The translations under genes and the position numbers were made by a program. Source: Candidatus Limivicinus faecipullorum (GTDB lineage Bacteria; Bacillota; Clostridia; Oscillospirales; Oscillospiraceae). Taken from it: a stretch of 42,656 nucleotides of DNA. The stretch covers positions 1 through 42,656 of the forward strand of contig DVHY01000170.1 in assembly GCA_018711755.1 (NCBI GenBank). Direction: 5' to 3'. Positions 2,365 to 39,674 of the stretch are shown here, in pieces. Position 1 is the first letter of the stretch. Every line of letters begins with the position of its first letter. The notes under the pieces are model-generated. The model worked only from the letters and a program-made list of their open reading frames with translations, did not search any database and had not been told where the DNA came from.

Positions 2365-3572
2365 TTCCCCAGCCTCCCGGCCAGACGGCCGCTGCTCCAG
2401 GCCCACTGGAGGTTGTAGCCTCCGCAGTCCCCGTCCACGTCCAAAAGCTCTCCGCAGACGAAGAGCCCGGGCATGAACCAGCTCTCCAGGGTCTCCGGGT
2501 CGAAGCCGGCGGTCCTTATGCCCCCGGCGGTGACCTGGGCCTTGTCGAAGCCCTCGGTGCCCAGGAGCTTCAGCCGGAAATCCGTCGCTGCCCGGGCCGC
2601 GCTCTCCAGCCGGATGTCGCTTAGCCGAGCCAGAGCCGTCTCCTGGGGGATGGCGGCGTATTTCACCAGCATCCGGCCCAGGCGGTTGTGGAGCATGCCG
2701 GTGAAGAGCTCTGAGGCGGGCAGCCGGGGGAAGGTCTCCCGGCGGCGCAGCAGCAGAGCTGCCAGCTCCTCCGGGCTGAGGGCACGGAAGAAGTTTATGG
2801 AAAGCTCTCCCCCCTCACCGAGCCGGGCGGCGCTGCGGGAGATGTCGAAAGCCGCCGGGCCGGAGACGCCGTTTTCCGTGAACTGTATCTCCCCCAGGCC
2901 CCGGCAGAGGACTTCCCCTCCGGCCAGGAGCTTCAGCTCCCCGTCGGCACGGATGCCCTTCAGGGCCCTGGGGTATTCCGGGGCGGTGAGCAGCTGCACC
3001 AGGGCCGGGCGCAGGGCGGTGCGCTTGTGGCCCAGGGGCTTTAAAAGCTCGTAGCCGTCCATGACGCCGCCCAGCCTGGCCCCGGCGGCCCCGCCGCAGG
3101 CGACTATAACATAGTCCGCCTCCAGCCGCCCCTCATCGGTGATGACGGCGTAGCCCTTTTCCCGGCGCTCAATGGCCCGGGCGGGGCAGGAGCAGCGCAG
3201 CTCCACCCCGTATTTGTCCAGGGCGAAGCGCAGCAGGTCCGCCACGCTGTTGGCGGAGTCGGAGAGGGGGTAGACCCGTCCGCCCTCTTCGGTGACGGTG
3301 AGCAGGCCCAGGCCGTGGAAAAAGTCCAGGGCCTGGGCGGGAGTGAACTTGCTGAGGGCGGGGGCGGCGAAGCCCTCCTGTTCCCCATGATAGTTTTCAA
3401 GGGAGGCTCCGGTATTGGTGAGATTGCAGCGGCCGTTGCCGGTGGCCAGGAGCTTGCGGGCTATGCGCTGCTGCCGCTCCAAAAGGATGACCCGGCGGCT
3501 CCCCGCCTCCGCCGCGGTGATGGCGGCCATGAGGCCGGAGGCCCCGCCGCCTATGACTATGACAGTTTCCAT
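2361..3572 (-). CDS. HI0933/BaiN-like NAD(P)/FAD-dependent flavoprotein
   Basis: The N-terminus reads METVIVIGGGASGLMAAITAAE, followed by ATGNGRCNLTN. The C-terminus (GGYNLQWAWSSG) is typical of the HI0933 family. Confidence 0.85.
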   Translation of the reverse strand: METVIVIGGGASGLMAAITAAEAGSRRVILLERQQRIARKLLATGNGRCNLTNTGASLENYHGEQEGFAAPALSKFTPAQALDFFHGLGLLTVTEEGGRVYPLSDSANSVADLLRFALDKYGVELRCSCPARAIERREKGYAVITDEGRLEADYVIVACGGAAGARLGGVMDGYELLKPLGHKRTALRPALVQLLTAPEYPRALKGIRADGELKLLAGGEVLCRGLGEIQFTENGVSGPAAFDISRSAARLGEGGELSINFFRALSPEELAALLLRRRETFPRLPASELFTGMLHNRLGRMLVKYAAIPQETALARLSDIRLESAARAATDFRLKLLGTEGFDKAQVTAGGIRTAGFDPETLESWFMPGLFVCGELLDVDGDCGGYNLQWAWSSGRLAGRLGK

Positions 3573-3575
3573 GCA

Positions 3576-4574
3576 TCAACCTCTGTGGAGAATATCGTGG
3601 GCTACGGGGGTGTAGAACAGGCGGTTCACTTTCTCCACGTCCCCGGTCTGGGCCAGTATCCACATCATCTTGGCGTAGACCGCCTCGGTGGTCATGTCGA
3701 AGCCCTCCAGCACGTAGGGGTTGCCCTTCAGGCTGTGGCCAACGGAGTAGACGGACAGGTCGGAGCCCTCGTTCTGCACCTGGGTGGTGACCACGATGAA
3801 CTTGCCCTGGGCGGTGTGCCGCTCCACCAGCTCCAGGAGGCGGCTGTCCTCATAGGAGGGCAGGCCCCCCACGCCGAAGCACTCGATGATGAGGGCCTTG
3901 TTCCGGCTGAGGAGGAAGTCCAGCAGCTCCGGCTCGGTGCCGGGCACCATCTTCACCAGGGCCACCTTCTCCTCCAGCTCATGGAAGAAGCGGGGGTGGC
4001 GGCGGTAGCGGGGGCTGATATAGCACATGAGCCGGTGGTCCTGGAGTATGGCCAGGTCCGGGTAGTTGATGCTGGAAAAGGCGGCGAAGCTCTTGGAGCA
4101 GGTCTTTCTGGCCCGGGTGCCCAGGATGACCCGGCCGCTGAACACGATGTCCACCCCGGCCAGCTCCTCTGAGCAGGCGCAGACGAAGGCGTCGGTGAGG
4201 TTCAGCTTGGAGTCGGTGGAGTCGTAGTTGATGGGCTTTTGGGCGCCGGTCATGATAATGGGCTTGTCCGCGTCCTGGACCATGTAGCTGAGAGCGGCGG
4301 CGGTGTAGGCCATGGTGTCGGTGCCGTGGCTGATGACGAAGCCGTCGTAGAGCTGGTAGTTCAGCTCCAGGGCCCGGGAGATGGCGCACCAGTGCCGGGG
4401 GGTGATGTTGGTGGAGTCGATATTGAAAAGGGAGAGGCATTCCACCTGGCACAGCTCCCTGATGGCGGGCACATAGCTGAGCAGCTGGGCCGGGCGCAGC
4501 TCCGGGGTCAGGCCCTCCGGCGTCATCTCCGAGGCGATGGTGCCCCCGGTGCCCAGCATGAGAATCTTTTTCAT
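3576..4574 (-). CDS. ansA: type I L-asparaginase
   Basis: MKKILMLGTGGTIAS carries the active-site Thr motif, and HGTDTM is the second asparaginase signature. A GGGAGG ribosome binding site precedes the start. Confidence 0.85.
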   Translation of the reverse strand: MKKILMLGTGGTIASEMTPEGLTPELRPAQLLSYVPAIRELCQVECLSLFNIDSTNITPRHWCAISRALELNYQLYDGFVISHGTDTMAYTAAALSYMVQDADKPIIMTGAQKPINYDSTDSKLNLTDAFVCACSEELAGVDIVFSGRVILGTRARKTCSKSFAAFSSINYPDLAILQDHRLMCYISPRYRRHPRFFHELEEKVALVKMVPGTEPELLDFLLSRNKALIIECFGVGGLPSYEDSRLLELVERHTAQGKFIVVTTQVQNEGSDLSVYSVGHSLKGNPYVLEGFDMTTEAVYAKMMWILAQTGDVEKVNRLFYTPVAHDILHRG

Positions 4575-4756: not shown

Positions 4757-5386
4757 TCATCTCTCGAAAGCGGTCAGCCCGCATTCGTAGGGGTGGTCGT
4801 AGTACAGGGCTTCCCGGCCCTCCGGCCGGTAGCACAGGAGCTTTGCAATTATCAACATATCGCCCCCGCCGGCCAGGACCATGGTCACCGCCAGGACCAG
4901 CAGGAAGGGCCGGGCCAGGGCGATGGCGGCGGCGGAGAGGACAAGGCTCAGCACCAGAGTGGGCATGGCTCCGCCCAGGATGTACTGGCCCTTGGTGAGG
5001 GGTTCGGAGCAGCTGCAGTAGGGGGTGAGAGCTTTCCATATCACGCCGAAGGCTATGGAGCCGAAGCCCCTGGAGCAAAAGCGGCTCCAGGTGAGGCCGT
5101 GGATGAACTCGTGTACTGCTGTCAGGAGGAAAAAGACGGGGAAGAACACCAGCCACCAGAGCGAGCTCAGCTGAAAGCTGCCCTGGGGATTTACCAGAAA
5201 ATAAATGACCGTTATGGCAATGGCAAAAGGCAGACTCAACAGAAGGGAGAGTGTGTTGGCCGCCAGCAGACCCACTGTGAGCTCCCGTTTCCTGTAGCCG
5301 GCCTGCTCCATCTCCTGACAAAGCCGTTCATAGGCTTCCTTCCTCTTCAGCTCCGCCGGGCTCAGCTTCCGCTCTTTTCCCTTCAT
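4757..5386 (-). CDS. DUF3267-like polytopic membrane protein with HExxH motif (putative zincin peptidase)
   Basis: There are several hydrophobic segments, and HEFIH sits at the end of the second one. The start is trimmed to ATG 5386 (MKGKERK, GGAGGAG ribosome binding site) because a promoter lies inside the longer track ORF. Confidence 0.7.
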   Translation of the reverse strand: MKGKERKLSPAELKRKEAYERLCQEMEQAGYRKRELTVGLLAANTLSLLLSLPFAIAITVIYFLVNPQGSFQLSSLWWLVFFPVFFLLTAVHEFIHGLTWSRFCSRGFGSIAFGVIWKALTPYCSCSEPLTKGQYILGGAMPTLVLSLVLSAAAIALARPFLLVLAVTMVLAGGGDMLIIAKLLCYRPEGREALYYDHPYECGLTAFER

Positions 5387-5423
5387 TGCATGCTCTCCTC
5401 CATCCGAATTAACTGTGCCGTGG

Positions 5424-5452
5424 ATTATATCATGCCGTCCCGGCAAAAGTAA
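5424..5452 (-). promoter_or_regulatory. promoter with extended -10 for the DUF3267 gene
   Basis: On the minus strand: TTACTT, a 17-nt spacer, then TGaTATAAT. Confidence 0.45.
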
Positions 5453-5497
5453 AGATATCGGGGCGGGATTTAAGAATAATTAAGGGGATGCCGCCTT

Positions 5498-5686
5498 TCA
5501 TGGCCTGAAAAGTTCGTCCACCGTCAGCCCCAGCTCCCCGGCCAAGGCAAAGGCCAGGGCCAGGGTGGGGTCGTACTTGTTGTTCTCTATGGCGTTCACC
5601 GTCTGCCGGGTGACGGAGCAGCGTTTTGCCAGTTCCTCCTGGGAAAGGCCCAGCTCCTTTCGCCGCTCTCTTATGCAGTTTTCCAT
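5498..5686 (-). CDS. short XRE-family helix-turn-helix transcriptional regulator
   Basis: The 62-aa protein contains LSQEELAKRCSVTRQTVNAIENNKYDPTL, a classic Cro/C1 HTH. Its start lies 1 nt after the stop of the upstream membrane ORF. Confidence 0.85.
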   Translation of the reverse strand: MENCIRERRKELGLSQEELAKRCSVTRQTVNAIENNKYDPTLALAFALAGELGLTVDELFRP

Positions 5687-5687
5687 C

Positions 5688-5972
5688 TCAGCCCCCCAGC
5701 TTCCGCTTGAAATAGAGGCTGAAACAAAAATACATCGTGGCCGTCACGGTGAGGTGGATAAAGGGGTTTATCAGATCCACGCTGCCGGTGACAAAGCCCC
5801 TCACTATCTCGATGACCAGCATGCCCACCAGGCCCATAAGGGTCCAGGTGCTGGCCTTCCACACCACCATCTGCCGCCGCTCGTCCCCCGGCCGGAGCAG
5901 GGATATCAGCATGGCGATGTCCAGAACTATCATGGCGCAGAGCCACAGAATAAACAGCAGCGTCAAAAACAT
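5688..5972 (-). CDS. small membrane protein (about 3 TM) co-transcribed with the XRE regulator
   Basis: The 94-aa protein has three hydrophobic stretches. An AAAGGAGGA ribosome binding site lies 4 nt before the ATG, and the gene is coupled to the downstream HTH gene. Confidence 0.65.
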   Translation of the reverse strand: MFLTLLFILWLCAMIVLDIAMLISLLRPGDERRQMVVWKASTWTLMGLVGMLVIEIVRGFVTGSVDLINPFIHLTVTATMYFCFSLYFKRKLGG

Positions 5973-5991
5973 GGCGTCCTCCTTTGACAGA

Positions 5992-6065
5992 AAAAATGTA
6001 AAAAACTTTTGACATCCTCAGCATATAACAGGAGGGCAAAACTGTCAAGAGTTTTTTACATTTTT
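5992..6065. repeat. 23-bp inverted repeat (5992-6014 / 6043-6065, 22/23 match, 28-bp spacer) in the divergent regulatory region
   Basis: The left arm is AAAAATGTAAAAAACTTTTGACA. The reverse complement of the right arm is AAAAATGTAAAAAACTCTTGACA. A third TTGACAG lies at 5984-5990. Confidence 0.7.
6020..6048 (-). promoter_or_regulatory. candidate promoter of the membrane-protein/XRE operon
   Basis: On the minus strand: TTGACA (in the right arm of the inverted repeat), a 17-nt spacer, then TATGCT. The left arm would lie in the 5' UTR. Confidence 0.35.
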
Positions 6066-6147
6066 CCCGGAGGAAAATTTTGCCCGGTCTCTGCCGGGGC
6101 GGCCCTGGGGGAACCGGGAGCTTCCCGCCGGGCGGGCCCCGGACGCA

Positions 6148-6176
6148 TTGACGAAAGGGGGAAAAAGGGGTATAAT
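6148..6176 (+). promoter_or_regulatory. sigma-70-like promoter of the CotH operon
   Basis: TTGACG (6148-6153), a 17-nt spacer, then TATAAT (6171-6176). It lies 30 nt upstream of the ATG; the ribosome binding site is GAGGAG. Confidence 0.5.
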
Positions 6177-6205
6177 ACAATGTATTTTTCTGCCGAGGAG
6201 CAAGC

Positions 6206-8650
6206 ATGAATAAGAAAAGCCTGATAGCCTTTGCCGCCACGGCGGCAGCGGTGATAATAATAGCCCTGGCGGCGGCGCTGCTGCCGGGCGGGGGCGAGGG
6301 GGCGCCGGAGCAGCCGGCGGCCACGGCCCGGCCCACGGCCAGCCCCAGCCCGGACCCGGAGGAACTGAGCCGGGGAGCGGGCCAGGTGGTGATAAGCGAA
6401 TTTATGGAGAAGAACCGGAGCACCCTGCGGGACGAGGACGGGGACTTCTCCGACTGGATAGAGCTTTGGAACCGGAGCGATGAGGCGGTGGACATCTCCG
6501 GCTGGAATCTTTCCGACCGGGAAAATCAGCTGGGCTGGACCCTGCCGGAAATGAGCCTCCAGCCGGGAGAGCGGATAGTTATCTTCGCCTCCGGCAAGGA
6601 CCGGCAGGGGGCTGAGCTGCACACCGGCTTCAGCCTCTCCGGGGACGAGGGGGTCTGGCTGCGCAATGAGTACGGCTACCTCTGTTCCTCCGCCCTTTGC
6701 GCCGACTGCGATGGGGACGTATCCATGGCTCTGGGGGACGATGGCAGCTATGGGCAGAGCCTGTACCCCACGCCGGGCTATGAGAACACGGCGGCGGGCT
6801 GGGAGAGCTTCCAGCAGAGCCTGAGCTGTGAAAGCCCCCTTATAATAAACGAGGCTCAGGTGTATAACCTGAACCTTGCCCCGGTGAACAAGGAGTACTA
6901 CGACTGGGTGGAGCTGAAAAACAACAGCGGCGCCGCCCTGCTCCTCTCGGACTATTACATATCCGACGACAGGGACGACTATCTCCGATACCGTCTGCCG
7001 GAGGTGGAGCTGGGCCCCGGGGAGTTCATCCTCCTATACTGCACTTCCGAGGCCCTGCCGGAGGGCTATTACGCCGCCGGCTTTGAGCTGAACTCGGAAA
7101 ACGAGCAGCTGTACCTGGCCACGGCGGAGGGAGAGCTGCTGGACAGCGTCTCCCTGAAGGACATCCCCTATCTGGGCAGCTTCGGCCGCATGGCCGGGGA
7201 GAACGGCTGGTTCTACTTCTCCAGCCCCAGCCCCGGCAGTGAAAACAGCGGCGGGCAGCGCCGGGTGGCGGAAAAGCCTCTGAGCCTGACGGCGGACGGG
7301 GTGTATAACGGTATAGAGGGCATGTATGTGGAGCTCAGTGCCTCCGGCAGCATACGCTATACCCTGGACGGCTCGGCCCCCACGGCGGAGAGCCCGGAGT
7401 ATACCGGACCCATTTACATAGACAAGACCACGGTGATAAGGGCGGTAAACTTTGAGGAAGGCGCTCTGCCCAGCCGGGCAATGAGCCTGAGCTATATAAT
7501 AAACGAGAACCACAGCCTGCCGGTGCTGAGCCTGCTGACGGACAGCCCAGCGGAGTTTGACACCATGTATAACGCCAAGCAGAAGGGCGTGGAGCTGCCC
7601 GCCAGCCTGTCCCTTTACGAGGAGGACGGCAGCTTCACCATAGGCTGCGGGGTGTCCATGCACGGGGAGACCAGCCTGGTGCTGCCGAAGAAGAACATGT
7701 CCGTGCGCTTCCGTGGGGCCTACGGCCAGAGCACGCTGAACTACGACATCTATGACGGGGGCGTGACGGAGTTTACAAATCTTCTGCTGCGCTCGGGGCA
7801 GGACTTCCCCATATCCATTATAAGAAACGAGCTGAGCCAGGAGCTGTGCGCCCAGGCTACGGACAAGGTGATAAACCAGCGCAGCATCTACTGCATACTG
7901 TACATAAACGGGGAGTACTCCGGCATCTACACTCTGAAGGAGAAGGCCAACGAGCAGCTCTACGCGGGCATAGCCGGGGTGAGCCGGGACAGCGTGGAGG
8001 TGCTGGAGGCAAACGTGTCCCAGGGCTCGGATTTTTTCCATGAAGTGGTGGAGTTCTGCCGCTTCAACGACATGAGCCAGGAGGAGAACTACAGTCACTT
8101 CTGCCACATGTTCGATATAGACAGCGTCATCGACTGGCTGATACTGGAGGGCTACTGCGCCAATACGGACCTGACTTCCGGCAATGTGCGCTACTGCCGC
8201 TCCACGGAGAACGACGGGAAATGGCGGCTGATGTTCTACGACCTGGACGCCAGCTTTTCCACGCCCGCCAGCGTGTTCATGAACGTGCTCAGCGAATACG
8301 CCCAGCAGAACCGGCAGTTTGCCAGCTTCATGGTGCCCCTGATGGATAATGGGGAATTCAAGGACCGCTTCCTCAGCCGGGCGGCGGAGCTGATGGGGAG
8401 CGTGCTGACGGTGGAGAACGTGATGGGGGAGATAGACCGGCTCTGCGCCATAGTCGCCCCGGAGGTGGAGCGGGACTATGCCCGCTTCGGGGGTACGGCG
8501 GCGGACTGGGAGTGGTCGGTGGAGCAGCTGAAGGCGGTGCTCATCGACTACGACTGGCAGCAGCTGAATATAGACAATCTCTGCGAGCTCTTTGACCTGA
8601 GCTCAGAGGAGCGGGAACATTATTTCGGAGAGATAGACGGACGGCAATGA
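6206..8650 (+). CDS. membrane-anchored CotH-family kinase with two lamin-tail domains and a chitobiase-C-like module
   Basis: - N-terminal hydrophobic anchor followed by a Pro/Ala linker.
- Two LTD-like segments (ISEFMEKN..DWIELWN..ISGWNLSD and IINEAQVYN..YDWVELKNNS..LSDYYISD).
- IRYTLDGSAPT..IRAV, a CHB_HEX_C-like module.
- The C-terminal ~370 aa are CotH-like (LLLRSGQDF..IRNELS..YINGEYSGIYTLKEK..FYDLD). Confidence 0.85.
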   Translation: MNKKSLIAFAATAAAVIIIALAAALLPGGGEGAPEQPAATARPTASPSPDPEELSRGAGQVVISEFMEKNRSTLRDEDGDFSDWIELWNRSDEAVDISGWNLSDRENQLGWTLPEMSLQPGERIVIFASGKDRQGAELHTGFSLSGDEGVWLRNEYGYLCSSALCADCDGDVSMALGDDGSYGQSLYPTPGYENTAAGWESFQQSLSCESPLIINEAQVYNLNLAPVNKEYYDWVELKNNSGAALLLSDYYISDDRDDYLRYRLPEVELGPGEFILLYCTSEALPEGYYAAGFELNSENEQLYLATAEGELLDSVSLKDIPYLGSFGRMAGENGWFYFSSPSPGSENSGGQRRVAEKPLSLTADGVYNGIEGMYVELSASGSIRYTLDGSAPTAESPEYTGPIYIDKTTVIRAVNFEEGALPSRAMSLSYIINENHSLPVLSLLTDSPAEFDTMYNAKQKGVELPASLSLYEEDGSFTIGCGVSMHGETSLVLPKKNMSVRFRGAYGQSTLNYDIYDGGVTEFTNLLLRSGQDFPISIIRNELSQELCAQATDKVINQRSIYCILYINGEYSGIYTLKEKANEQLYAGIAGVSRDSVEVLEANVSQGSDFFHEVVEFCRFNDMSQEENYSHFCHMFDIDSVIDWLILEGYCANTDLTSGNVRYCRSTENDGKWRLMFYDLDASFSTPASVFMNVLSEYAQQNRQFASFMVPLMDNGEFKDRFLSRAAELMGSVLTVENVMGEIDRLCAIVAPEVERDYARFGGTAADWEWSVEQLKAVLIDYDWQQLNIDNLCELFDLSSEEREHYFGEIDGRQ

Positions 8651-9369
8651 ACGAGACGCAGCTGAGCTTCAAGCGTTATGAAAAGAAATATCTGCTGTCC
8701 CGGGAAAAGTACGGGCAGCTGTGGCGGGGGCTGGAGCCCCGGCTGGAGCCGGACCGCTTTTTTGAGAGCACGGTGCTGAGCCTGTACTACGACTGGGACG
8801 ATTTCCGCCTGATACGCAGCTCCATCGAGCAGCCGGTGTACAAGGAAAAGCTGCGCCTGCGCAGCTACAACGTGCCCGGGGCGGAGGACCAGGTCTTTGT
8901 GGAGCTGAAGAAGAAGTACAAGGGCATAGTGTATAAGCGCCGGGTCCGGATGCGGGAGCGGGAAGCGGAGGAGTATCTGGCGGGAGGGGGGAGCCCCCTG
9001 GCCGCCGACCAGATAAGCCGGGAGATAGACTGGTTTTTAAAGACCAACCCGGTGCGGCCCAAGGTGCTCATCGCCTGTGACCGCCGGGCCTATGTGGGCC
9101 GGGAGGAGCCGGGGCTGCGGCTGACCTTTGACAGCTCCATCCGCTGGCGGGACACCCAGCTGAGCCTCACCGCCGGGGACTTCGGCCGGGAGCTTTTGGA
9201 GGAGGGGCAGGTGCTCATGGAGATAAAGATGCCGGAGTCGGCCCCCCTGTGGCTGGCGGAGCTGCTCAGCAGCCTGGAGATCTTCCCCCGGAGCTTTTCC
9301 AAATACGGCCAGTGCTATAAAAACGAACTGATAGAAAAATACTTTGACGGAGTGATGGTAATTGCTTAA
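8647..9369 (+). CDS. VTC-domain protein (polyphosphate-polymerase-like triphosphate tunnel fold)
   Basis: It starts SFKRYEKKYLL and has alternating charged strands (KLRLRSY, VELKKKYKGIVYKRRV, RLTFDSSIRWR, VLMEIKMP). There is no signal peptide. The start forms an ATGA overlap with the CotH stop. Confidence 0.85.
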   Translation: MNETQLSFKRYEKKYLLSREKYGQLWRGLEPRLEPDRFFESTVLSLYYDWDDFRLIRSSIEQPVYKEKLRLRSYNVPGAEDQVFVELKKKYKGIVYKRRVRMREREAEEYLAGGGSPLAADQISREIDWFLKTNPVRPKVLIACDRRAYVGREEPGLRLTFDSSIRWRDTQLSLTAGDFGRELLEEGQVLMEIKMPESAPLWLAELLSSLEIFPRSFSKYGQCYKNELIEKYFDGVMVIA

Positions 9370-10039
9370 CCAACTGATAACCGACAGCGTGATAAACGGC
9401 GTGATCACCCTGCCCAGCTTTTTCATCTGCGTGCTGACGGCTCTGGCCCTGGGCTTGCTGACGGCCCTGGTCTTCACCGCCTACAGCTACCATACCGGCT
9501 CCCTGGCCATATCCCTGGCCCTGCTGCCCCCGGTGGTGGCGGTGGTCATCATGCTGGTCAACGGCAACGTGGGGGCGGGCCTGGCGGTGGCGGGCACCTT
9601 CGCTCTGGTGCGCTTTCGCAGCGTCCCCGGCTCCGCCCGGGAGATAACGGGGCTGTTCATGTCCGTGGCCCTGGGCCTGGCCTGCGGCATGGGTTATGTG
9701 GGCCTGGCGGCGCTGTTTTTCCTTGTGATGGCCGCCGCGGTGCTGATTCTGGGCCGCCTCCGCTTCGGGGAGGGGAGCCGCGCTAACCGGCAGCTGAAGA
9801 TAACCATCCCGGAGAACCTGGATTACGAGACCCTTTTTGACGACCTGTTTGAGAAATACACTCTCAGCCACGAGCTGGTGCGGGTGAAGACCAGCAACAT
9901 GGGCACCCTCTACGAGCTGTGCTACGAGGTGCGGCTGAAAGAGGCGGGGATAAGCAAGGCCTTTCTGGACGAGATACGCTGCCGCAACGGCAACCTCACC
10001 GTCATCTGCGGCCGGGAGAAAGAGGTGGAGACCATATGA
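9362..10039 (+). CDS. DUF4956-like membrane protein (4 TM plus soluble C-terminal domain)
   Basis: The TTG start overlaps the VTC gene by 8 nt. Hydrophobic segments are followed by VRFRSVPGSAREI and a ~95-aa soluble tail. Confidence 0.8.
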   Translation: MLNQLITDSVINGVITLPSFFICVLTALALGLLTALVFTAYSYHTGSLAISLALLPPVVAVVIMLVNGNVGAGLAVAGTFALVRFRSVPGSAREITGLFMSVALGLACGMGYVGLAALFFLVMAAAVLILGRLRFGEGSRANRQLKITIPENLDYETLFDDLFEKYTLSHELVRVKTSNMGTLYELCYEVRLKEAGISKAFLDEIRCRNGNLTVICGREKEVETI

Positions 10040-11226
10040 AAAAGACCCTGGCCCCGGCCCTGCTGCTGAGCCTGTGCCTGGCCCTGGCCGGGTGCAGCGG
10101 CGGCGCCGGCGTCCCCGGAGAGGAATTGACGGAGCTGGAACAGCTGGGGGCCGCCGCCACGGTTATAAGCCTGGAGGGCGGCACGGCGGAGATAGAGGGC
10201 CCGGGTGCTTCTTTTGAAAACGGCCTTGTCACCCTCAGCACCGGGGGCAGCTTTCTTATCCGGGGCAGCCTGGAAAACGGCCGCATCCTGGTGGACACCG
10301 GGGAGACCAAGCAGGAGGTGGAGCTCATCCTGGAATCGGTGAGCATCCACTGTGAAAATGACGCCGCCTTGTATGTGGAGCGGGCGGAAAAGACCCGGAT
10401 ATACGTGAAGGAGGGAGAGCCCAGCCGCCTCAGCTCCGGCGCTCCGAGGACGGACAGCCAGGTCCTCACCGAAGCCAGCGGCGCCGCGGTCTACGGGGAG
10501 GACGACCTGGACTTCATGGGCCCCGGCACCCTTATAATAGAAGGTAACATCAATAACGGCATAGGCTGCAAAAACGACGTGGATATAAACGGCGGCGAGC
10601 TGAAGATCAGCGCCGCGAACCACGGTATAAAGGGCAACGAGTCGGTGGATATAAAGGGCGGCCAAGTGAGCATCAGCTGCCTTAACGACGGCCTGAAGAC
10701 CGACGACGCGGAGAAAGAAGGCAAAGGCTCGGTGAATATCACCGGGGGCGCCCTGAATATCAGCTCCCAGGATCAGGGCATCAGCTCCATAAAGGATATC
10801 AACATCACCGGCGGTGAGGTGAATATCGTCTCCCAGAGGGACGGGCTGAATGCCGACAAGGAGCTGGGCGGCTCCGTGAATATAAGCGGCGGCAGCGTGT
10901 TCATAAGCTCCGGCAACGACGCCATAGACGCCTCCGGCGGGGTGCTGAGCATCAGCGGCGGCAGCCTGTTGGCCCTGGGCAAGGACAAGGATATCAAGGC
11001 CGCAGTGGAAGCCTCCATCCCCTGCTATGCAGGGAGCCTGAAGCTGGCGGAGGGGGAGACTCTGGAACTCCGCAGAGCCAGCGGAGAGAGCCTGGTAAGT
11101 CAGAGCGCCTGGGAGATAAAGACCGCCTATATCGCCCTGGCAGACGCCTCCGACGGTGAGGAGCTGGAGCTCTTCATTGGCAGCGGAGAGGAGCGGGAGA
11201 GCCGGGGGAGCATTACTCTTGACTAA
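10036..11226 (+). CDS. Cthe_2159-like carbohydrate-binding beta-helix lipoprotein
   Basis: The track ORF is trimmed to ATG 10036, which forms an ATGA overlap with the upstream stop. The signal peptide MKKTLAPALLLSLCLALAGC ends in a lipobox. The C-terminal part contains six V(D/N)I.GG...I repeats. Confidence 0.75.
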   Translation: MKKTLAPALLLSLCLALAGCSGGAGVPGEELTELEQLGAAATVISLEGGTAEIEGPGASFENGLVTLSTGGSFLIRGSLENGRILVDTGETKQEVELILESVSIHCENDAALYVERAEKTRIYVKEGEPSRLSSGAPRTDSQVLTEASGAAVYGEDDLDFMGPGTLIIEGNINNGIGCKNDVDINGGELKISAANHGIKGNESVDIKGGQVSISCLNDGLKTDDAEKEGKGSVNITGGALNISSQDQGISSIKDINITGGEVNIVSQRDGLNADKELGGSVNISGGSVFISSGNDAIDASGGVLSISGGSLLALGKDKDIKAAVEASIPCYAGSLKLAEGETLELRRASGESLVSQSAWEIKTAYIALADASDGEELELFIGSGEERESRGSITLD

Positions 11227-11250
11227 GAAAAGCCGATAACAAAACAAGAA

Positions 11251-11277
11251 AAGCGAGCCGGATTTCGGCTCGCTTTT
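11251..11277. terminator. bidirectional intrinsic terminator between the CotH operon and the GNAT gene
   Basis: The stem is GCGAGCCG/CGGCTCGC (11253-11260 with 11266-11273). It is flanked by an A-run upstream and TTTT downstream. Confidence 0.6.
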
Positions 11278-11296
11278 GCATGTATCAGTTATAGAT

Positions 11297-11776
11297 TCAC
11301 TTGTTTTCCAGCCCACGGAGACTGTCGCCGGCAAGGCGGTAGACTGTCCAGTCCTCCATGGGTGTGGCGTCCAGAGAGAGGTAAAAATCTATGCTGGGTT
11401 TGTTCCAGTCCAGGCAGGCCCATTCCAGACGCCCGCAGCCGCGCTCCCGGGCTATGCGCCCCAGCTGCTGCAAGGTGGCCTTGCCATAGCCCTTGCCCCG
11501 GTGCTCAGGCTTTATGAACAGGTCCTCCAGATAGAGCCCGGCCCGGCCCAGGAAGGTGGAGAAATTGTGGAAGAAGAGGGCAAAGCCAACTTCCTCCCCG
11601 TCCACTACAGGGAAGATGACCTCGGCCTTTCCCTTTTCAAATATCCACTCCCTCAGCAGCTCCTCCGTGGCCACCACCTGGTCCGGCATCTTCTCGTATT
11701 CTGCCAGGGCCTTTATAAAGGAGAGGATAAGGGGGCAGTCCTCAGGGGAGGCGAAACGAAAGCTGATATCCTTCAT
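11297..11776 (-). CDS. GNAT-family N-acetyltransferase (diamine/SSAT-like)
   Basis: The 159-aa protein has the acetyl-CoA motif KPEHRGKGYGKATL. The overall layout matches spermidine/spermine-type GNATs. Confidence 0.85.
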   Translation of the reverse strand: MKDISFRFASPEDCPLILSFIKALAEYEKMPDQVVATEELLREWIFEKGKAEVIFPVVDGEEVGFALFFHNFSTFLGRAGLYLEDLFIKPEHRGKGYGKATLQQLGRIARERGCGRLEWACLDWNKPSIDFYLSLDATPMEDWTVYRLAGDSLRGLENK

Positions 11777-11787
11777 GCCCGGCCTCC

Positions 11788-12990
11788 TCAGGAGTAGCTG
11801 GCATAGATGTCGGAGTAATCCCGCACCATGTCGTCCCCTTCGTAGGTGCCCAGTATCTTGCTCATGGCCCGGTCGTATTCCTCGGTGCCCGGCTCATAGG
11901 GGGTGGGCTTGTAGTCGTTGTAGTTGTCCACATTGTTTGCAGCCCCCTCCAGGTCGCTGGACACACAGCAGGGGATGATCTCATAGCTGTCGTTGTGGAT
12001 GCTGCCGTCGCCGTCCCGGCGTATCTTCAGCTGGAAGATGGCGGTGTCCGGGTCGGTGGGCTTGGTGCTGCCGCCGAAGCTCCAGTTGCCCATGGAGTAG
12101 AGGATGATGCCGTCCTTATACTCCTCCAGGGGCTGGAGACAGTGGGAGTGGCTGCCGTAGATCAGGTCGGCCCCGGCGTCTATGCAGGCGTGGGCCAGCT
12201 CCACCTGGGCGTCGGTGGGCCGGTATTTCAGCTCGCTGCCCCAGTGGAACATGCACACTATGTAATCCACGCCCTGGCTCTCAAAGTCGGCAATGGCGGC
12301 CAGGGCCTTGTCCTTGTCGGGGATGTTGGTGCTGCCGGTGCCTATGGAGTCCCCGTCCCCGGCGGTGTAGATGCCCATCTTTATGCCGCTGGGGGTGGTG
12401 ATGACCTGGGACTGCTCGTCCTCGCCGTAGGCCATGCCTATGCCGTCCAGGGCGGCCTTGGTGTCCTCCAGCCCGGCGTCGTTAAAGTCCATGGTGTGGT
12501 TGTTGGCTATGGTGACGAAGTCCACTCCGCCTTCCGGCAGTATCTGTATCCACTCGGCAGGGCAGAGGAAATAGAACTGGGCGTAGATGGAGTTTTGCAG
12601 CTTCTTATCGGAGAAGCTGCACTCCAGGTTCCCCAGGGTCAGCTCGTCGCCGGAGAAGTACTGGACGGTGTTGGCAAAGGGGTAACTGTAGTCCCCGTTC
12701 ATCTTGGAGGCATAGTGGGCGGAACTCTGCTCAGAGAAATACTGGTTGGTGGTAAGGGTCATGTCTCCGATGCAGGAGATGGTGAAGTACTCCGGCTCCG
12801 GCTCGGGGGTGGGCTCCGGCGTGGGGGTGGGGGAGCTCTCCGCCGCCAGGGTGTCCACCGTCTCATTGCTGCTGTCGTCGGCAGCGGCCTCCGGTATTAT
12901 GGTCAGAGCCAGATCCAGTCTTGCCTTGGATATAAAGACCAGGGTCAGGCACAGCAGGGCCAGAATGATGACTTGCAGAACTCTTTTCAT
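11788..12990 (-). CDS. CapA-family (PGA_cap metallophosphatase-like) exported protein
   Basis: The track ORF is trimmed to MKRVLQVIILALLCL, a signal/anchor sequence. CapA-type motifs are present: ISCIGDMTL, ANNHTMDF, MFHWGSE and GSHSHCLQP. Confidence 0.8.
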   Translation of the reverse strand: MKRVLQVIILALLCLTLVFISKARLDLALTIIPEAAADDSSNETVDTLAAESSPTPTPEPTPEPEPEYFTISCIGDMTLTTNQYFSEQSSAHYASKMNGDYSYPFANTVQYFSGDELTLGNLECSFSDKKLQNSIYAQFYFLCPAEWIQILPEGGVDFVTIANNHTMDFNDAGLEDTKAALDGIGMAYGEDEQSQVITTPSGIKMGIYTAGDGDSIGTGSTNIPDKDKALAAIADFESQGVDYIVCMFHWGSELKYRPTDAQVELAHACIDAGADLIYGSHSHCLQPLEEYKDGIILYSMGNWSFGGSTKPTDPDTAIFQLKIRRDGDGSIHNDSYEIIPCCVSSDLEGAANNVDNYNDYKPTPYEPGTEEYDRAMSKILGTYEGDDMVRDYSDIYASYS

Positions 12991-13050
12991 ATCTCTTGTC
13001 CTCGTCCTCCGGCGAAGCTGCGGGAGCGGCCGGAGCATATGTAAATATAA

Positions 13051-13080
13051 ATTATATCTCTCGCCAGAATAAGACGGCAA
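13051..13080 (-). promoter_or_regulatory. possible promoter for the CapA gene
   Basis: On the minus strand: TTGCCG, an 18-nt spacer, then TATAAT. It lies just after the acyltransferase stop. Confidence 0.3.
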
Positions 13081-13084
13081 AAAG

Positions 13085-14101
13085 CTACAATAGTTTCCGC
13101 ACCAGGGGCATCTTTTTTGCAGCCAAGGCCAACAGCGTACACACCAAGGCCAGCAAGGCTGTGAAGCCCAGCACGCTGAGCACCGGCCTGTCCAGACTCA
13201 TGTTGAGCCCCAAAAGCTGGAGAATGTTTATCAGCATGGGGTGGAGCAGGTATATACCCAGGGTGGCGTCGGCCAGGGCGGCCCAGGCTTTGGGATGGCG
13301 GAATTCCCGCCCCTTCAGGGCCTGGAAGAAGCAGAAGATCATGGTGGCCTGGATGAGGCTGGGCAGGGAGAAATAGCTGAAGAGCCAGCCGTCGGCCACC
13401 TGCTTGTAGTTGGAGTACCAGATGTTGCCCCAGGTGGTGAGGGCCGTCACCGCCAGGAACACCGCCGGGGCGATGAGGAGCCAGACTTTTTTAAACTCCC
13501 TGCCGCTGAGCCAGTAGCCCCAGACGGCGTAGCCCAGATAGGGCAGGTAGTCGAAGGAGAAGTTCAGGGTTATACGGTAGAGTATGGGGGCGGTGTCCGG
13601 GGTGAGGTTGAAGTTTGCAAAGAGTATGGACACGCCGAAAAAGAGGAAGAGCAGATAGCCTGTGGGCAGGCCGCCCCGGTGGATGGCGGCGTGGGCCGCC
13701 GGGAGAAAGAGGCAGCAGAGCACCATGGCCGTGAGGAACCACAGGTGGTAGTGACCCTGGACAAAGGAATAGACAAAGTCGTAGAGGCTGCCGAAGCTGC
13801 CGGAGGCCAGGCGGCTCAAAAGGGCATAGGCCAAAGACCAGAAGCAGAAGAGGAGCAGCAGCCGCAATGGGTGCCTTATAAGGAAAGACTTCAGCTCCAG
13901 CTTTTCCCGGGAGAGGAAGAGGGCCCCGGTGAGCATGAAGAACACCGGCACGCCGCCCCGCAGCATGGTGCTTATGAAGCTGAGGGACAGGAAGGCCGGG
14001 GAGTCCAGGGGGCAGATATGGTACAGCTCTGCGCTGGTGTGTATAAATAGGACCATAAGGCAGGCCGTGATACGGCACAGGTCCAGTTCAGTTCGTCTCA
14101 T
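13085..14101 (-). CDS. acyltransferase-3 (AT3) family integral membrane acyltransferase
   Basis: The protein has about 10 hydrophobic segments. The N-terminal DLCRITACLMVLFIHT (His in TM1) is typical of AT3. Confidence 0.8.
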   Translation of the reverse strand: MRRTELDLCRITACLMVLFIHTSAELYHICPLDSPAFLSLSFISTMLRGGVPVFFMLTGALFLSREKLELKSFLIRHPLRLLLLFCFWSLAYALLSRLASGSFGSLYDFVYSFVQGHYHLWFLTAMVLCCLFLPAAHAAIHRGGLPTGYLLFLFFGVSILFANFNLTPDTAPILYRITLNFSFDYLPYLGYAVWGYWLSGREFKKVWLLIAPAVFLAVTALTTWGNIWYSNYKQVADGWLFSYFSLPSLIQATMIFCFFQALKGREFRHPKAWAALADATLGIYLLHPMLINILQLLGLNMSLDRPVLSVLGFTALLALVCTLLALAAKKMPLVRKLL

Positions 14102-14354: not shown

Positions 14355-14527
14355 CGCCGGACCTGCCGGATATTCTTTTCAAATTTGCTCCGGGGCCCCA
14401 TGACCTCGCGGCCGCAGCCGCAGCAGCGGAGCCTGAAGTCCGCTCCGACGCGCAGCACCTGCCAGTCCCGGCTGCCGCAGGGGTGGGCTTTTTTCATGGT
14501 GAGGGTGTCGCCTACCTGGATGTCCAT
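14351..14527 (-). CDS. DUF951-like small protein (58 aa, not in the ORF track)
   Basis: My own translation is MDIQVGDTLTMKKAHPCGSRDWQVLRVGADFRLRCCGCGREVMGPRSKFEKNIRQVRR. The ATG overlaps the rarA stop (TAATG). The ORF exactly fills the gap between rarA and the GIY-YIG gene. Confidence 0.7.
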   Translation of the reverse strand: MDIQVGDTLTMKKAHPCGSRDWQVLRVGADFRLRCCGCGREVMGPRSKFEKNIRQVRR

Positions 14528-15777
14528 TATTTTTTTATCTCCTCCCAGTAGCGGCGGGCGGCCTGTTCGGTCTTGTTGTCGCCGTACTCGTAATAGCGGG
14601 CGTTTTTCAGCTCGTCGGGCAGGTACTGCTGCTTCACCCAGCGGTGGGGGAAGCTGTGGGGGTACTTGTAGCCCTGCTCCCGCTCAAAGCGGGTGCCGTC
14701 GGCGTGGACGTTCTGGAGCTCTCTGGGGATGGCCCCGGTGCGTCCGGCCCTCACGTCGGAGAGGGCGGCGTCTATGGCCAGGCAGGCGGTGTTGGATTTG
14801 GGGGCGGTGGCCAGGAGCAGGCAGGCTTCCGCCAGGGGCAGCCTTGCCTCCGGCAGGCCCAGCTGCATGGCCGAGTCCACGCAGGCCTTGACTATGGGCA
14901 CCGCCTGGGGGTAGGCCAGGCCGATGTCCTCGCTGGCGGAGCAGAGTATGCGCCGGCAGGCGCCGATAAGGTCCCCCACCTCCAGCAGCCTTGCCAGGTA
15001 GTGCATGGCGGCGTCGGGGTCGGAGCCCCGGAGGGACTTCATCAAAGCGGAGAGAATGTCGAAGTGCTCGTCCCCCTCCCGGTCGTAGCGCATGGCGCTG
15101 CGCTGGGATATGGCGGAGGCGTCCTCCAGGCTTATCTCCTGCCGGTCCCCGGCGGCGGAGAAGAGCAGCTCCACGGAGTTTATGGCCTTGCGCACATCCC
15201 CGCCGCAAGCGGTGCTTATCCGCTCCATGACCCCCGGGCCCAGGCTCAGGGGCTTTTCCCGGCGGGAGTTCATGATGTCCACCGCCCGCTGGACCGCCCT
15301 GGCGATGTCCGAGGGGCTGACGGCCTTGAACTCAAAGACGGTGGAGCGGCTCAAGATGGCGTTGAAGACGCAGAAATAGGGGTTTTCCGTGGTGGAGGCG
15401 ATGAGGGTTATCCGCCCGTCCTCGATGAATTCCAGCAGGGACTGCTGTTGTTTCTTGTTGAAATACTGTATCTCGTCCAGGTACAGCAGCACGCCTCCCG
15501 GGGTGAGGAAGGTGTCCAGCTCGTCGATTATCTTTTTGATGTCGGCGATGCCGGCGGTGGTGGCGTTGAGCTTGCGCAGAGAGCGGTTGGTGCGCTGGGC
15601 GATTATCCGGGCCACGGTGGTCTTGCCGGTGCCGGAGGGGCCGTAGAATATCATGTTGGGTATCTGGCCGCTGTCCACTATGCGCCGGAGCATGCCGTCT
15701 TTTCCCAGAATATGTGGCTGGCCCACCACGTCCTCCAGACTGTCGGGCCGTATTTCGTCTGCAAGAGGCTTGTACAT
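14527..15777 (-). CDS. rarA: replication-associated recombination protein A (AAA+ ATPase)
   Basis: The Walker A motif is GPSGTGKTT and the Walker B motif is LLYLDEIQYFNK. The MgsA C-terminal region (AMHYLARLLE, DIGLAYPQA) is present. Confidence 0.9.
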   Translation of the reverse strand: MYKPLADEIRPDSLEDVVGQPHILGKDGMLRRIVDSGQIPNMIFYGPSGTGKTTVARIIAQRTNRSLRKLNATTAGIADIKKIIDELDTFLTPGGVLLYLDEIQYFNKKQQQSLLEFIEDGRITLIASTTENPYFCVFNAILSRSTVFEFKAVSPSDIARAVQRAVDIMNSRREKPLSLGPGVMERISTACGGDVRKAINSVELLFSAAGDRQEISLEDASAISQRSAMRYDREGDEHFDILSALMKSLRGSDPDAAMHYLARLLEVGDLIGACRRILCSASEDIGLAYPQAVPIVKACVDSAMQLGLPEARLPLAEACLLLATAPKSNTACLAIDAALSDVRAGRTGAIPRELQNVHADGTRFEREQGYKYPHSFPHRWVKQQYLPDELKNARYYEYGDNKTEQAARRYWEEIKK

Positions 15778-15976: not shown

Positions 15977-16010
15977 CAGTTTACATATTTTCTGAAAAGG
16001 AGAATGAAAA

Positions 16011-16697
16011 ATGGCAAGAGGAAAGATAAAAGCCGTTTTGTTTATAGTGGTCTTTGTTCTGGCCGTGGCCATCGGCTGCAACGCTCTCATCGGCATGGCC
16101 AACATGAAGCCGGAGGAGACGGAGCCCACCCCCGATCCCTTCCTGATGACTCCCGACGTGAATTCCCAGACCGGCAGCACCGTTGCCCCCAGCACCGTGG
16201 CTCCCACCGTCGTGCCTACCGTGGCTCCCACAGTGGCTCCCACCATAGCCCCCGCGCCCACTCCCACCCCCACCCCGGTGCCTACGGCCACCCCGGCCCC
16301 GGCGGGCCAGGTTTTGGGCAGCGGCAGCTTCAGCTCCGAGACCGGCGTGCCCATAAACATCCGGGCCAACTGGACAGCCACCGTGCTGGACAGTGAGCGG
16401 GTGCAGGTGAAGGTGGAGGTCATTTTGGACTCCTACGCCCTGCACATAGCCGAGAGCTACGGGGCTTTGAACGTCAGCGTGGGGGACCAGTACGCCAGCA
16501 GCAATACCCCCGCCGTGGACTATGACGGCAATGAGCAGCTGAGCACCGTGCTGGGCAGCACCACCCACACCCTGAACCTGGCCCAGGGCCAGAGCAGCAG
16601 CTTTACCATGGCTGTGGAATACCACTTCGGCGGAACCTACAGCGACCAGGAGCTGCCGGTGATAGAGTGCGGCGGCTCCATCCAGCTCAGCCGCTGA
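16011..16697 (+). CDS. membrane-anchored hypothetical protein with Thr/Val/Ala/Pro repeat linker
   Basis: There is a good ribosome binding site and an N-terminal TM segment (VLFIVVFVLAVAIGC). The (S)TVAP repeats and PT-rich linker are followed by a ~130-aa beta-rich domain that I do not recognise. Confidence 0.6.
   Translation: MARGKIKAVLFIVVFVLAVAIGCNALIGMANMKPEETEPTPDPFLMTPDVNSQTGSTVAPSTVAPTVVPTVAPTVAPTIAPAPTPTPTPVPTATPAPAGQVLGSGSFSSETGVPINIRANWTATVLDSERVQVKVEVILDSYALHIAESYGALNVSVGDQYASSNTPAVDYDGNEQLSTVLGSTTHTLNLAQGQSSSFTMAVEYHFGGTYSDQELPVIECGGSIQLSR
16176..16306 (+). repeat. imperfect 12-nt (TVAP) tandem repeats followed by Pro/Thr low-complexity coding DNA
   Basis: The run is accgtggctccc / accgtcgtgcct / accgtggctccc / acagtggctccc / accatagccccc. 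It is followed by a PTPTPTPVPTATPAPA-coding stretch. Confidence 0.65.
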
Positions 16698-16712
16698 GAG
16701 GTGCGGTAAGCT

Positions 16713-17348: not shown

Positions 17349-17361
17349 ATACATAGCGTTG

Positions 17362-21428: not shown

Positions 21429-21432
21429 AAGC

Positions 21433-24118: not shown

Positions 24119-24182
24119 TTTGTTCTCCCGTTTTTTCTGGAATATGGTATAGTAGCACTGTATAATATGTGCATACTTCGTT

Positions 24183-24211
24183 ATTATAAAATTTATGACA
24201 GGAAATTGCAA
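24183..24211 (-). promoter_or_regulatory. sigma-70-like promoter of the DD-carboxypeptidase gene
   Basis: On the minus strand: TTGCAA (24206-24211), a 17-nt spacer, then TATAAT (24183-24188). Confidence 0.5.
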
Positions 24212-24269
24212 CATAAAGTTCCCTGTTCTGCATAGATTTAAAATTTTAAAATAGGGCGGAAAAAACAAA

Positions 24270-24956: not shown

Positions 24957-24971
24957 GGGAGGAAGAGCCTT

Positions 24972-28652: not shown

Positions 28653-28755
28653 CCGGCCCGCAGGAGCCGCTGGGCGGCCGCTGAGGGCAAAGCCCGGAAA
28701 GACCGGGAAAAGGTCCATATCCCAAAAGACAGCTTAAATAGTAAAAGACAATATG

Positions 28756-28795
28756 AAAAGCGGTCCCGCCGGGTATTCGGCGGGACCGCTTTTTA
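28756..28795. terminator. strong bidirectional intrinsic terminator
   Basis: A 12-bp stem, GCGGTCCCGCCG/CGGCGGGACCGC (28760-28771 with 28778-28789). AAAA precedes it and TTTTT follows it. Confidence 0.75.
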
Positions 28796-39655: not shown

Positions 39656-39674
39656 ATTTGCGGCCGTTTTGTCC

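Follow-up and report, generated by a model that had tools for sequence, protein, structure and literature searches.

A four-gene operon joining a Vtc4-like protein and a DUF4956 membrane protein to exported surface proteins in Candidatus Limivicinus faecipullorum: a conserved gene pair and candidate polyphosphate module

The DNA analysed here, referred to as the window, is a 42,656-nucleotide (nt) stretch from Candidatus Limivicinus faecipullorum (Oscillospiraceae; contig DVHY01000170.1), and the subject of this study is a plus-strand operon at positions 6206-11226 that encodes a CotH-family kinase, a VTC-domain protein, a DUF4956 membrane protein and a Cthe_2159-type lipoprotein. ORF (open reading frame) calling and sequence inspection identified four overlapping plus-strand ORFs, each of which encodes a separate protein. 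The first gene (6206-8650, ATG start) codes for a signal-anchored, multidomain CotH-family kinase of 814 amino acids (aa), as recognised by Pfam and by a hydrophobic anchor, and the second (8647-9369, ATG start) for a stand-alone VTC-domain protein of 240 aa that is predicted to be cytoplasmic. The third (9362-10039, TTG start) codes for the DUF4956 protein of 225 aa, and the fourth (10036-11226, 396 aa from the ATG at 10036) for a beta-helix protein of the Cthe_2159 type with a lipobox. An initial annotation, made from the DNA letters alone, had assigned five protein families to these genes, and profile searches placed all five above the Pfam curated cut-offs. The junctions lie exactly where it had put them, with ATGA at 8647-8650, the 8-nt overlap TTGCTTAA at 9362-9369 and ATGA at 10036-10039.

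The start codon of the first gene follows a Shine-Dalgarno sequence, GAGGAG (6195-6200, plus strand), found by inspection at a distance of 5 nt from the ATG at 6206. Further upstream lies a sigma-70-type promoter-like site, TTGACG-17 nt-TATAAT (6148-6176, plus strand), which matches the consensus at 11 of 12 positions and ends 29 nt before the start codon. It was the top-scoring site within positions 5000-12500; the promoter scan found 9 sites, against 2.0 expected. Downstream of the fourth gene, a strand-neutral palindromic hairpin of 13 bp, AAAAGCGAGCCG-loop-CGGCTCGCTTTT (11249-11277), folds on the plus strand with -24.4 kcal/mol (z = -4.97; 0 of 200 shuffled sequences folded as well). The scan placed this hairpin on the minus strand and assigned it to a convergent GNAT gene, and its U-tract on the plus strand is short, with only four U. 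Since the palindrome lies between an A-run and a T-run, it can terminate in both directions, and it is probably a bidirectional terminator common to the operon and the GNAT gene. One promoter-like site and one hairpin thus bracket the overlapping frames, as had been proposed, and the four genes form one tightly coupled operon, the products of which together span the cell envelope. Topology here and below is as predicted.

The second protein contains no hydrophobic segment, in agreement with the suggestion that it lacks an export signal and resides in the cytoplasm. It matches Pfam VTC (PF09359) over profile positions 1-232 of 235 (136.2 bits, cut-off 23, E=1.7e-39), and it has no match to Pfam CYTH even at E<=10. 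A PDB search with the single sequence gave no match and a profile was needed; the one built from 69 diverse relatives matches yeast Vtc4 (3g3q) at E=1.3e-14. The AlphaFold2 model (pLDDT 88.8, pTM 0.86) was compared to solved structures, and its 13 best fold matches are all Vtc4, Vtc2 or Vtc3 (E 4.7e-13 to 4.4e-10, TM 0.74, TMq <=0.75). These are followed by hydrolases of the CYTH/TTM (triphosphate tunnel metalloenzyme) type, class IV cyclases and triphosphatases (E at least 3e-7, TM <=0.54), so that the model is nearer to Vtc4 than to the CYTH hydrolases and cyclases by six orders of magnitude.

Cryo-electron microscopy of the yeast complex has defined nine triphosphate/Mn2+ ligands of Vtc4, the mutation of which lowers polyphosphate (polyP), namely K200, R264, R266, K281, Y359, R361, E426, S457 and K458, and the position of K458 is occupied by Ile or Leu in the inactive Vtc2 and Vtc3 (bioRxiv 2023.01.27.525886). 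Eight of the nine have identical counterparts in the window protein: K14 (for K200), R70 (R264), R72 (R266), K88 (K281), R146 (R361), E192 (E426, paired by motif and strand position in the model and not by a printed alignment), S218 (S457) and K219 (K458). The ninth, Y359, is replaced by C144. Clostridia, Bacilli and Actinomycetota all have these eight ligands unchanged, and the tunnel residues R10, E12, K14, R70, R72, K88, K97, R99, R146, E192, K194, S218 and K219 are conserved across three phyla. K219 is invariant in all 81 compared sequences and in all distant relatives (Bacilli, Actinomycetota). The tunnel is thus not degenerate, an outcome that the initial annotation had left to be checked. 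Taken by itself, the question of whether this protein makes polyP is one on which we lean, slightly, towards yes, by analogy with Vtc4.

The third protein matches Pfam DUF4956 (PF16316) with 53.2 bits (cut-off 30.6, E=3.9e-14). Its AlphaFold2 model (pLDDT 74) contains five helices (residues 17-39, 46-65, 70-87, 92-110 and 113-132), followed by a C-terminal beta-alpha-beta-beta-alpha-beta domain of the ferredoxin/ACT-like type; the four hydrophobic segments counted earlier from the sequence must therefore be corrected to five, while the soluble tail described with them was recovered. This C-terminal domain is predicted to be cytoplasmic, which fits the distribution of charges. The most conserved stretch of the family is VNGNxGxGxAVxGxFxLVRFRSxPG, in which G78, R84, F85 and R86 are invariant. 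In fold searches, ferredoxin/ACT-like matches were obtained for the tail only, and the membrane part had no match. A relationship to the membrane subunits of the yeast complex was considered and is not supported: a phylogenetically broad DUF4956 profile compared to the PDB found no solved relative, neither among the yeast VTC membrane subunits nor among MgtC domains.

We examined the gene neighbourhood of the VTC gene in one genome per species. At least 542 species contain a relative, and the census comprises the best 80 loci (49-94% identity), which come mostly from gut and rumen metagenome-assembled genomes (MAGs) of Oscillospiraceae and 'Ca. Limivicinus', the lineage in which they place the window, and were labelled with iterated hidden Markov models (HMMs) and Pfam. 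The VTC family is far larger, with at least 5,000 clusters at 50% identity. A DUF4956 gene lies downstream of the VTC gene on the same strand at 79 of the 80 loci, the exception being cut by a contig end, and the 8-nt overlap of its start with the VTC stop is kept in 73 of these 79 despite protein divergence to 46-50% identity. Genes of the Cthe_2159 family adjoin the pair at 62 loci, immediately downstream in 46 and immediately upstream, for the most part in divergent orientation, in 16. CotH genes do so at 37, a count that includes a divergent CotH at L015, which was missed by the close-relative HMM (36 loci) and found when Pfam was run on all remaining operon neighbours with a length of 200 aa or more, 56 in number. 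Those 56 yielded no other recurrent operon gene, and no polysaccharide synthase, pel gene or glycosyltransferase was found among the operon neighbours in the 80 loci. Two VTC ORFs that appeared to be fused, of 918 and 1139 aa (L016, L021), are artefacts of the longest-ORF caller, with only the C-terminal VTC domain recognisable.

At the 62 loci with complete context, both CotH and Cthe_2159 genes adjoin the pair in 22 cases, Cthe_2159 alone in 29, CotH alone in 7 and neither in 4, so that at least one extracytoplasmic partner is present in 58. The full four-gene arrangement was recovered from 26 species. Co-conservation of the four genes, as initially proposed, consequently holds to unequal degrees: VTC and DUF4956 form an obligate pair and the conserved core, Cthe_2159 is the usual third partner in this lineage, and CotH is present in less than half of the loci. 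The operon site itself is conserved in about 30 species (e.g., L007-L009, L015, L027, L036, L037) between asparaginase, HI0933-like and FAD-dependent genes (775-4574 in the window) and MgsA (14527-15777). Because the asparaginase and flavoprotein genes are syntenic and the interval from them to VTC may or may not contain CotH, CotH represents an optional insertion at a fixed site. We regard it as very likely that the operon is a conserved functional module with the VTC-DUF4956 pair at its core.

The CotH-family protein consists of an anchor (residues 3-33), a Pro/Ala linker, two LTD domains, a CHB_HEX_C/Fn3_assoc region (374-429) and the CotH kinase domain (483-778). Pfam values are E=1.8e-37 for CotH (PF08757; 130 bits, cut-off 23.8), 1.2e-25 for LTD (2 copies) and 6.9e-14 for CHB_HEX_C_1. 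The N-terminal anchoring and the linker noted earlier are both present, the anchor as KK followed by a 22-residue hydrophobic segment. A single-sequence PDB search returned only a non-significant CotH match (E=0.084), and a profile was needed to match B. cereus CotH (5jd9) at E=1.9e-5. In that alignment, N-x-D655...N660 and D679-x-D681 correspond to catalytic and metal-binding residues (the equivalents of B. subtilis D228 and D251), and D655, N660, D679 and D681 are invariant in 36 orthologues, so the catalytic residues are intact. The window protein shares with the CotH proteins of B. subtilis and B. cereus the kinase domain, the catalytic Asp (D228, here D655), Asn660 and the metal-binding Asp (D251, here D679), but it differs in being export-anchored, multidomain, 814 aa long and preceded by a vegetative-type promoter, and no CotB- or CotG-like substrates are encoded near the operon. 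Residues 628-765 have a weak match (E=1.2e-6) to phrog_27151, a phage family of 1469 positions and unknown function.

The fourth protein matches Pfam Cthe_2159 (PF14262) with 204.8 bits (E=1.9e-60). A phmmer comparison with the Cthe_2159 crystal structure (4peu/4phb) covers residues 3-265 at E=5.3e-36, with the lipobox in common. The lipobox, LALAGC with Cys20, bears out its designation as a lipoprotein. Cthe_2159 has been reported to bind cellulosic and pectic polysaccharide. The isoelectric point (pI) of the fourth protein is 4.35 and that of the CotH protein 4.26, so both exported proteins are strongly acidic, and the median pI in 63 orthologues is 4.3.

CotH is best known as a spore-coat kinase, and it could be asked whether the locus is a chance juxtaposition or else a spore-coat, phage or defence element, to which the PHROG match might be added. 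The probability of this is negligible. Dozens of species from several phyla share the gene order, and chance is thereby refuted by the census. A spore-coat role was rejected on the export anchor, the vegetative-type promoter and the occurrence of the cassette in non-sporulating streptococci, bifidobacteria, enterococci and actinomycetes. A phage or defence origin was likewise rejected, as PADLOC gave zero matches on the operon and the PHROG match is single, weak and to a family of unknown function.

We compared the operon to an accessory gene group described in the literature. Genes for cotH, a "poly-phosphate polymerase", DUF4956 and DUF4832 are contiguous with pelDEADAFG in streptococci, clostridia and bifidobacteria (Whitfield 2020, PMC7112168). 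In Streptococcus intermedius, the products of SIR_1594-1591 include a CotH-like kinase that is secreted, a VTC-like protein of the cytoplasm and a membrane protein that has four transmembrane segments and an ACT domain and that CDD assigned to MgtC (mBio 2025, PMC12345266). Deletion of the DUF4956 gene or of the CotH gene halved aggregation in artificial sputum medium (ASM), and the level of Pel was raised by deletion of the DUF4956 gene (SIR_1592) and lowered by deletion of the CotH gene (SIR_1594) (PMC12345266). The initial annotation had held that the gene combination has no experimentally assigned function; this stands for the biochemical function, whereas the combination as such is known from the pel accessory group (PMC7112168) and from these deletions (PMC12345266).

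The local arrangement of the CotH-like, VTC-like and DUF4956 genes is common to the pel cassette and the window operon, and in both the fourth gene encodes an extracytoplasmic, carbohydrate-related, lipoprotein-like protein. They differ in that the window operon has no contiguous pelDEADAFG or glycosyltransferase, either in the window or at the 80 loci, in that a Cthe_2159 beta-helix protein takes the place of the DUF4832 glycoside hydrolase as the fourth gene product, and in that its CotH protein carries LTD and CHB_HEX domains and not a C-terminal FN3 domain. The window operon is thus a stand-alone variant of the known accessory cassette, new in carrying the beta-helix lipoprotein. The trio was stated to be absent outside pel loci (PMC12345266); the loci described here contradict this statement, and the trio is not confined to them. 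The invariance of the VTC-DUF4956 pair is also new to the published record. The literature searched contains no paper that links Vtc4 with CotH or describes an association with Cthe_2159 or with a two-component system (presented below), and these partnerships have not been described as such.

As the best mechanism for the module we propose, tentatively and at rather less than even confidence, that polyP synthesis is coupled to transit across the membrane. The VTC protein, docked to the cytoplasmic ACT-like domain of DUF4956, would build polyP from a nucleoside triphosphate on the inner side of the membrane. DUF4956 would pass the growing chain outward, probably in the form of an oligomer whose cytoplasmic mouth carries the invariant Arg84 and Arg86, and the two proteins would correspond in function to the yeast VTC complex, in a prokaryotic version whose membrane subunit is unrelated. 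Outside, the beta-helix lipoprotein would hold or process the polymer. In operons that include CotH, the exported kinase may use the polymer for the phosphorylation of surface proteins or glycans. These steps are not equally secure. The passage of the product through DUF4956 is doubtful, albeit a real prospect, and it is quite unlikely that CotH uses the product as its phosphoryl donor. The complete scheme, in which a VTC-DUF4956 synthase-exporter delivers polyP, as a high-energy phosphate polymer, to the outer side of the membrane for capture by the Cthe_2159 lipoprotein and for use by exported CotH kinases, must be called improbable.

The proposal draws on what the operon shares with the yeast VTC complex (Vtc4, Vtc3 or Vtc2, and Vtc1), that is the family and fold of the catalytic domain, eight of nine ligands including the Lys of the catalytic subunit, and an enzyme genetically tied to a multi-helix membrane protein; the proposed target differs, being the cell exterior and not the vacuole. 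It is favoured as well by the overlapping genes between one promoter-like site and one hairpin, by the obligate pairing with DUF4956 and the retained 8-nt overlap, by the extracytoplasmic partner at 58 of 62 loci, by the occurrence of the trio next to two different exopolysaccharide synthase systems, by the intact active site and export anchor of CotH, and by the altered surface-polymer phenotype of the DUF4956 and CotH gene deletions in S. intermedius (PMC12345266). Several observations weigh against it. The bacterial protein is a 240-aa single domain that lacks SPX and a fused DUF202 transmembrane domain, and no Vtc1-type partner is present. DUF4956 has no detectable relation in sequence to the membrane domains of Vtc1, Vtc3 and Vtc4, which form the yeast channel, or to any solved structure, and gives no sign of pore formation. 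Both exported proteins are so acidic that direct binding of polyP is unlikely, and holding of the polymer by the lipoprotein would need divalent-cation bridges, such as pectate lyases use for polygalacturonate. The literature searched holds no activity report for any bacterial VTC-domain protein. Deletion of the VTC gene in S. intermedius had no clear phenotype, unlike that of both neighbours (PMC12345266), which is not predicted by a strictly linear pathway from VTC through DUF4956 to CotH.

Two further differences from Vtc4 concern the active site itself. At the position of Vtc4 Thr198, the bacterial family has an invariant Glu, E12, within the motif R-x-E-x-K. The position of Y359 is Cys in 54 of the 81 sequences, which form one clade including the window protein, while Tyr occupies it in 26 others of the 81 and in each of the 11 distant relatives. 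The metal-binding strand motif of hydrolytic CYTH/TTM enzymes is ExExK, and E12 recalls one half of it, which keeps alive a reading of the VTC protein as a tunnel hydrolase (a tripolyphosphatase, NTPase or polyphosphatase) or another nucleotide-transforming TTM enzyme and not a polymerase, in an operon that would consume or remodel a phosphorylated compound at the membrane. The replacement of Tyr by Cys in the window clade and the position of CYTH/TTM hydrolases and class IV cyclases as next-best fold matches point in the same direction. This reading is nevertheless clearly improbable, given the lack of a Pfam CYTH match, the closer fold of Vtc4 (E 5e-13 versus at least 3e-7) and the invariance of the Lys that separates catalytic Vtc4 from its inactive paralogues. 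We also considered Cys144 as an adaptation linked to CotH, since across the 80 loci Cys or Ala at this position coincides with CotH adjacency (37 of 37) and Tyr with CotH absence (26 of 26). This was rejected: the CotH-linked VTC proteins of Planococcus, Enterococcus and Nonomuraea keep Tyr, and the pattern is therefore phylogenetic.

Beyond the census lineage, the VTC-DUF4956 pair was also identified in Desulfotomaculum, Pelotomaculum, Sinanaerobacter, Marasmitruncus, Paenibacillus, Enterococcus, Planococcus, Acetoanaerobium and Nonomuraea. In distant relatives (47-53% identity), a divergent OmpR-type response regulator and a HisKA kinase adjoin VTC, DUF4956 and Cthe_2159 genes in this order, without CotH. 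Such five-gene units with a two-component system were found on Pfam-annotated contigs of Desulfotomaculum, Sinanaerobacter, Marasmitruncus, Pelotomaculum, an ENA MAG and Paenibacillus. At six loci (L081-L085, L087), the VTC gene lies at about 8001-8726 and the two-component system at about 5850-7830 on the minus strand. In about 15 of the 80 census loci a related system directly follows DUF4956. Apart from L081-L085 and L087, loci with such a system are L047, L051-L054, L056, L058-L061, L069, L071-L073 and L076-L078. The two-component system, with a HisKA kinase of about 410 aa and located either divergently upstream or directly downstream of DUF4956, is thus the commonest extra partner outside the clade of the window. 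These units resemble the window operon in the order and coupling of VTC, DUF4956 and Cthe_2159, but differ in the regulator and kinase, the lack of CotH and the longer Cthe_2159 proteins (506-701 aa), and no orthologue of the system adjoins the window operon. An assignment of the system as PhoR/PhoB-like was not supported, as the best NCBIfam matches (RppA/B, PnpS, PhoR) are far below the cut-offs.

This association fits a regulatory circuit, and it is one of the observations in favour of an intracellular role in phosphate or polyP signalling. PolyP would then be made or sensed in the cytoplasm, DUF4956 would be an MgtC-like membrane anchor that binds a small ligand with its ACT-like domain and controls the enzyme or other membrane proteins, and the surface proteins would be co-regulated cargo for adhesion or biofilm formation. 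The layout of DUF4956, with about five N-terminal helices and a cytoplasmic ferredoxin/ACT-like domain, is that of MgtC, a family of membrane proteins of virulence and ATP homeostasis, although the likeness is in layout only. The authors of the S. intermedius study read their data likewise and suggested cytoplasmic polyP (PMC12345266), and the opposite effects of the two deletions on Pel agree with it. MgtC (PF02308) is the third-ranked Pfam match of DUF4956, yet the match is non-significant (E=0.89, 10.4 bits, cut-off 31.4) and, with none to solved MgtC domains either, the homology is statistically unsupported. An ACT-like fold is by itself weak evidence of ligand sensing, and a purely cytoplasmic role needs neither the extracytoplasmic partner found in 58 of 62 loci nor the translational coupling. 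We consider the signalling role unlikely, if deserving of attention.

Gene orders in other taxa place CotH after the pair. These are VTC-DUF4956-response regulator-histidine kinase-CotH on an Enterococcus faecalis plasmid, VTC-DUF4956-CotH in Nonomuraea, and, on a plasmid of Planococcus maritimus (NZ_CP059541, L088, 4470-12824), VTC-DUF4956-CotH followed by genes for a protein of 689 aa, a HEAT-repeat protein and a chitin-synthase-like glycosyltransferase of family 2 (GT2). The Planococcus six-gene order is the one published for Clostridium perfringens NELoc-2, in which the DUF4956 gene is annotated as "tubulin/FtsZ GTPase", and it represents a second exopolysaccharide-synthase context, distinct from pel. 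Like the window operon, the NELoc-2/Planococcus cluster contains the pair with an adjoining CotH kinase; it differs in the position of CotH after the pair, in the protein of about 685 aa, the HEAT-repeat protein and the GT2 module, and in the lack of Cthe_2159. Acetoanaerobium has the order response regulator-histidine kinase-VTC-DUF4956-PLD-like protein. The slot after DUF4956 was filled at single loci by other enzymes that act on phosphodiesters, namely by a NAGPA phosphodiester glycosidase (L042, 5182-6273) and by the PLD/cardiolipin-synthase-like protein of Acetoanaerobium (L090, 9513-11069). In Bacteroides thetaiotaomicron, DUF4956 is listed beside a DUF2490 protein (BT3498-BT3499), which could mark a Gram-negative variant of the module. 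A Gram-negative variant with an outer-membrane partner was also considered; the 150 best representatives, as far as they carry names, belong to Firmicutes. Strains of Clostridium thermocellum adapted to ethanol show convergent mutations in the VTC-domain gene Clo1313_1989, the expression of which is halved by a mutation close to the promoter.

The physical linkage of the trio to pel operons and to the GT2/HEAT synthase cluster raises the question of whether the module serves the maturation of a surface polymer. CotH would be an ATP-dependent kinase of proteins or glycans, the beta-helix protein would bind or cut polysaccharide, and VTC-DUF4956 would act in an unrelated supporting function, e.g., phosphate or energy homeostasis. 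The kinship of CotH to the Fam20 kinases of the secretory pathway agrees with such a role, as do the phosphodiester glycosidase in the partner slot of one locus and the clear homology of the fourth protein to Cthe_2159 with its reported polysaccharide binding. This explanation is rather unlikely, as no polysaccharide synthase is present in the window or adjoins the operon at the 80 loci, and it accounts neither for the invariance of VTC-DUF4956 next to variable surface proteins nor for the source of ATP for an exported kinase.

The question of the donor is a general one. Exported CotH kinases are found at pel loci, in cellulosomes and on fungal surfaces, and all of them raise the question of a phosphoryl donor outside the cell; in the operon, a candidate machine for making such a donor lies next to one of these kinases. 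PPK1 and PPK2 are the enzymes to which polyP synthesis in bacteria is ascribed. Should polyP synthesis and export by VTC-DUF4956 hold true, this Vtc4-like family, with its intact catalytic residues and obligate membrane partner, would constitute a third and separate route, maybe export-coupled, and the first dedicated polyP export device of bacteria, and it would account for secreted and cellulosomal CotH kinases that work without extracellular ATP. The "polysaccharide-binding" role of the founding member, Cthe_2159, is suggested for re-examination in the context of VTC-DUF4956. Since the census fixes the pair as an obligate unit with regular partners, the hypothesis of polyP export is directly testable.

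The genes that flank the operon are unrelated to it. Those upstream are divergent and encode a 94-aa membrane protein, an XRE regulator, a DUF3267 protein, an asparaginase and two flavoproteins, and those downstream are convergent and encode GNAT, PGA_cap and Acyl_transf_3 proteins. The XRE, 94-aa membrane protein and DUF3267 genes (4757-5972) and the GNAT, PGA_cap and Acyl_transf_3 genes (11297-14101) are restricted to the closest relatives (L001-L006). The window ORFs examined include no pel gene, glycosyltransferase, ppk or ppx, and NCBIfam and PHROGs added no informative assignment for the operon proteins. Long ORFs with no Pfam match are located at 15981-17354 (minus strand, 457 aa), 28753-29718 (plus strand, 321 aa) and 38690-39745 (minus strand, 351 aa).

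Elsewhere in the window, two OmpR-type two-component systems (20721-22521, minus strand; 24270-26369, plus strand) surround a Peptidase_S11 D-Ala-D-Ala carboxypeptidase gene (22652-24325, minus strand). Compared to the VTC-linked system of the distant relatives, they score at a generic and not at an orthologous level, and they are probably unrelated to the operon. The minus-strand genes convergent to the operon (11788-14101) include those for a CapA-like PGA_cap protein (430 aa) that has a membrane segment at its N terminus and a linker rich in Thr, Pro and Glu, and for an Acyl_transf_3 membrane acyltransferase; both are envelope-related, yet they are not conserved along with the operon.

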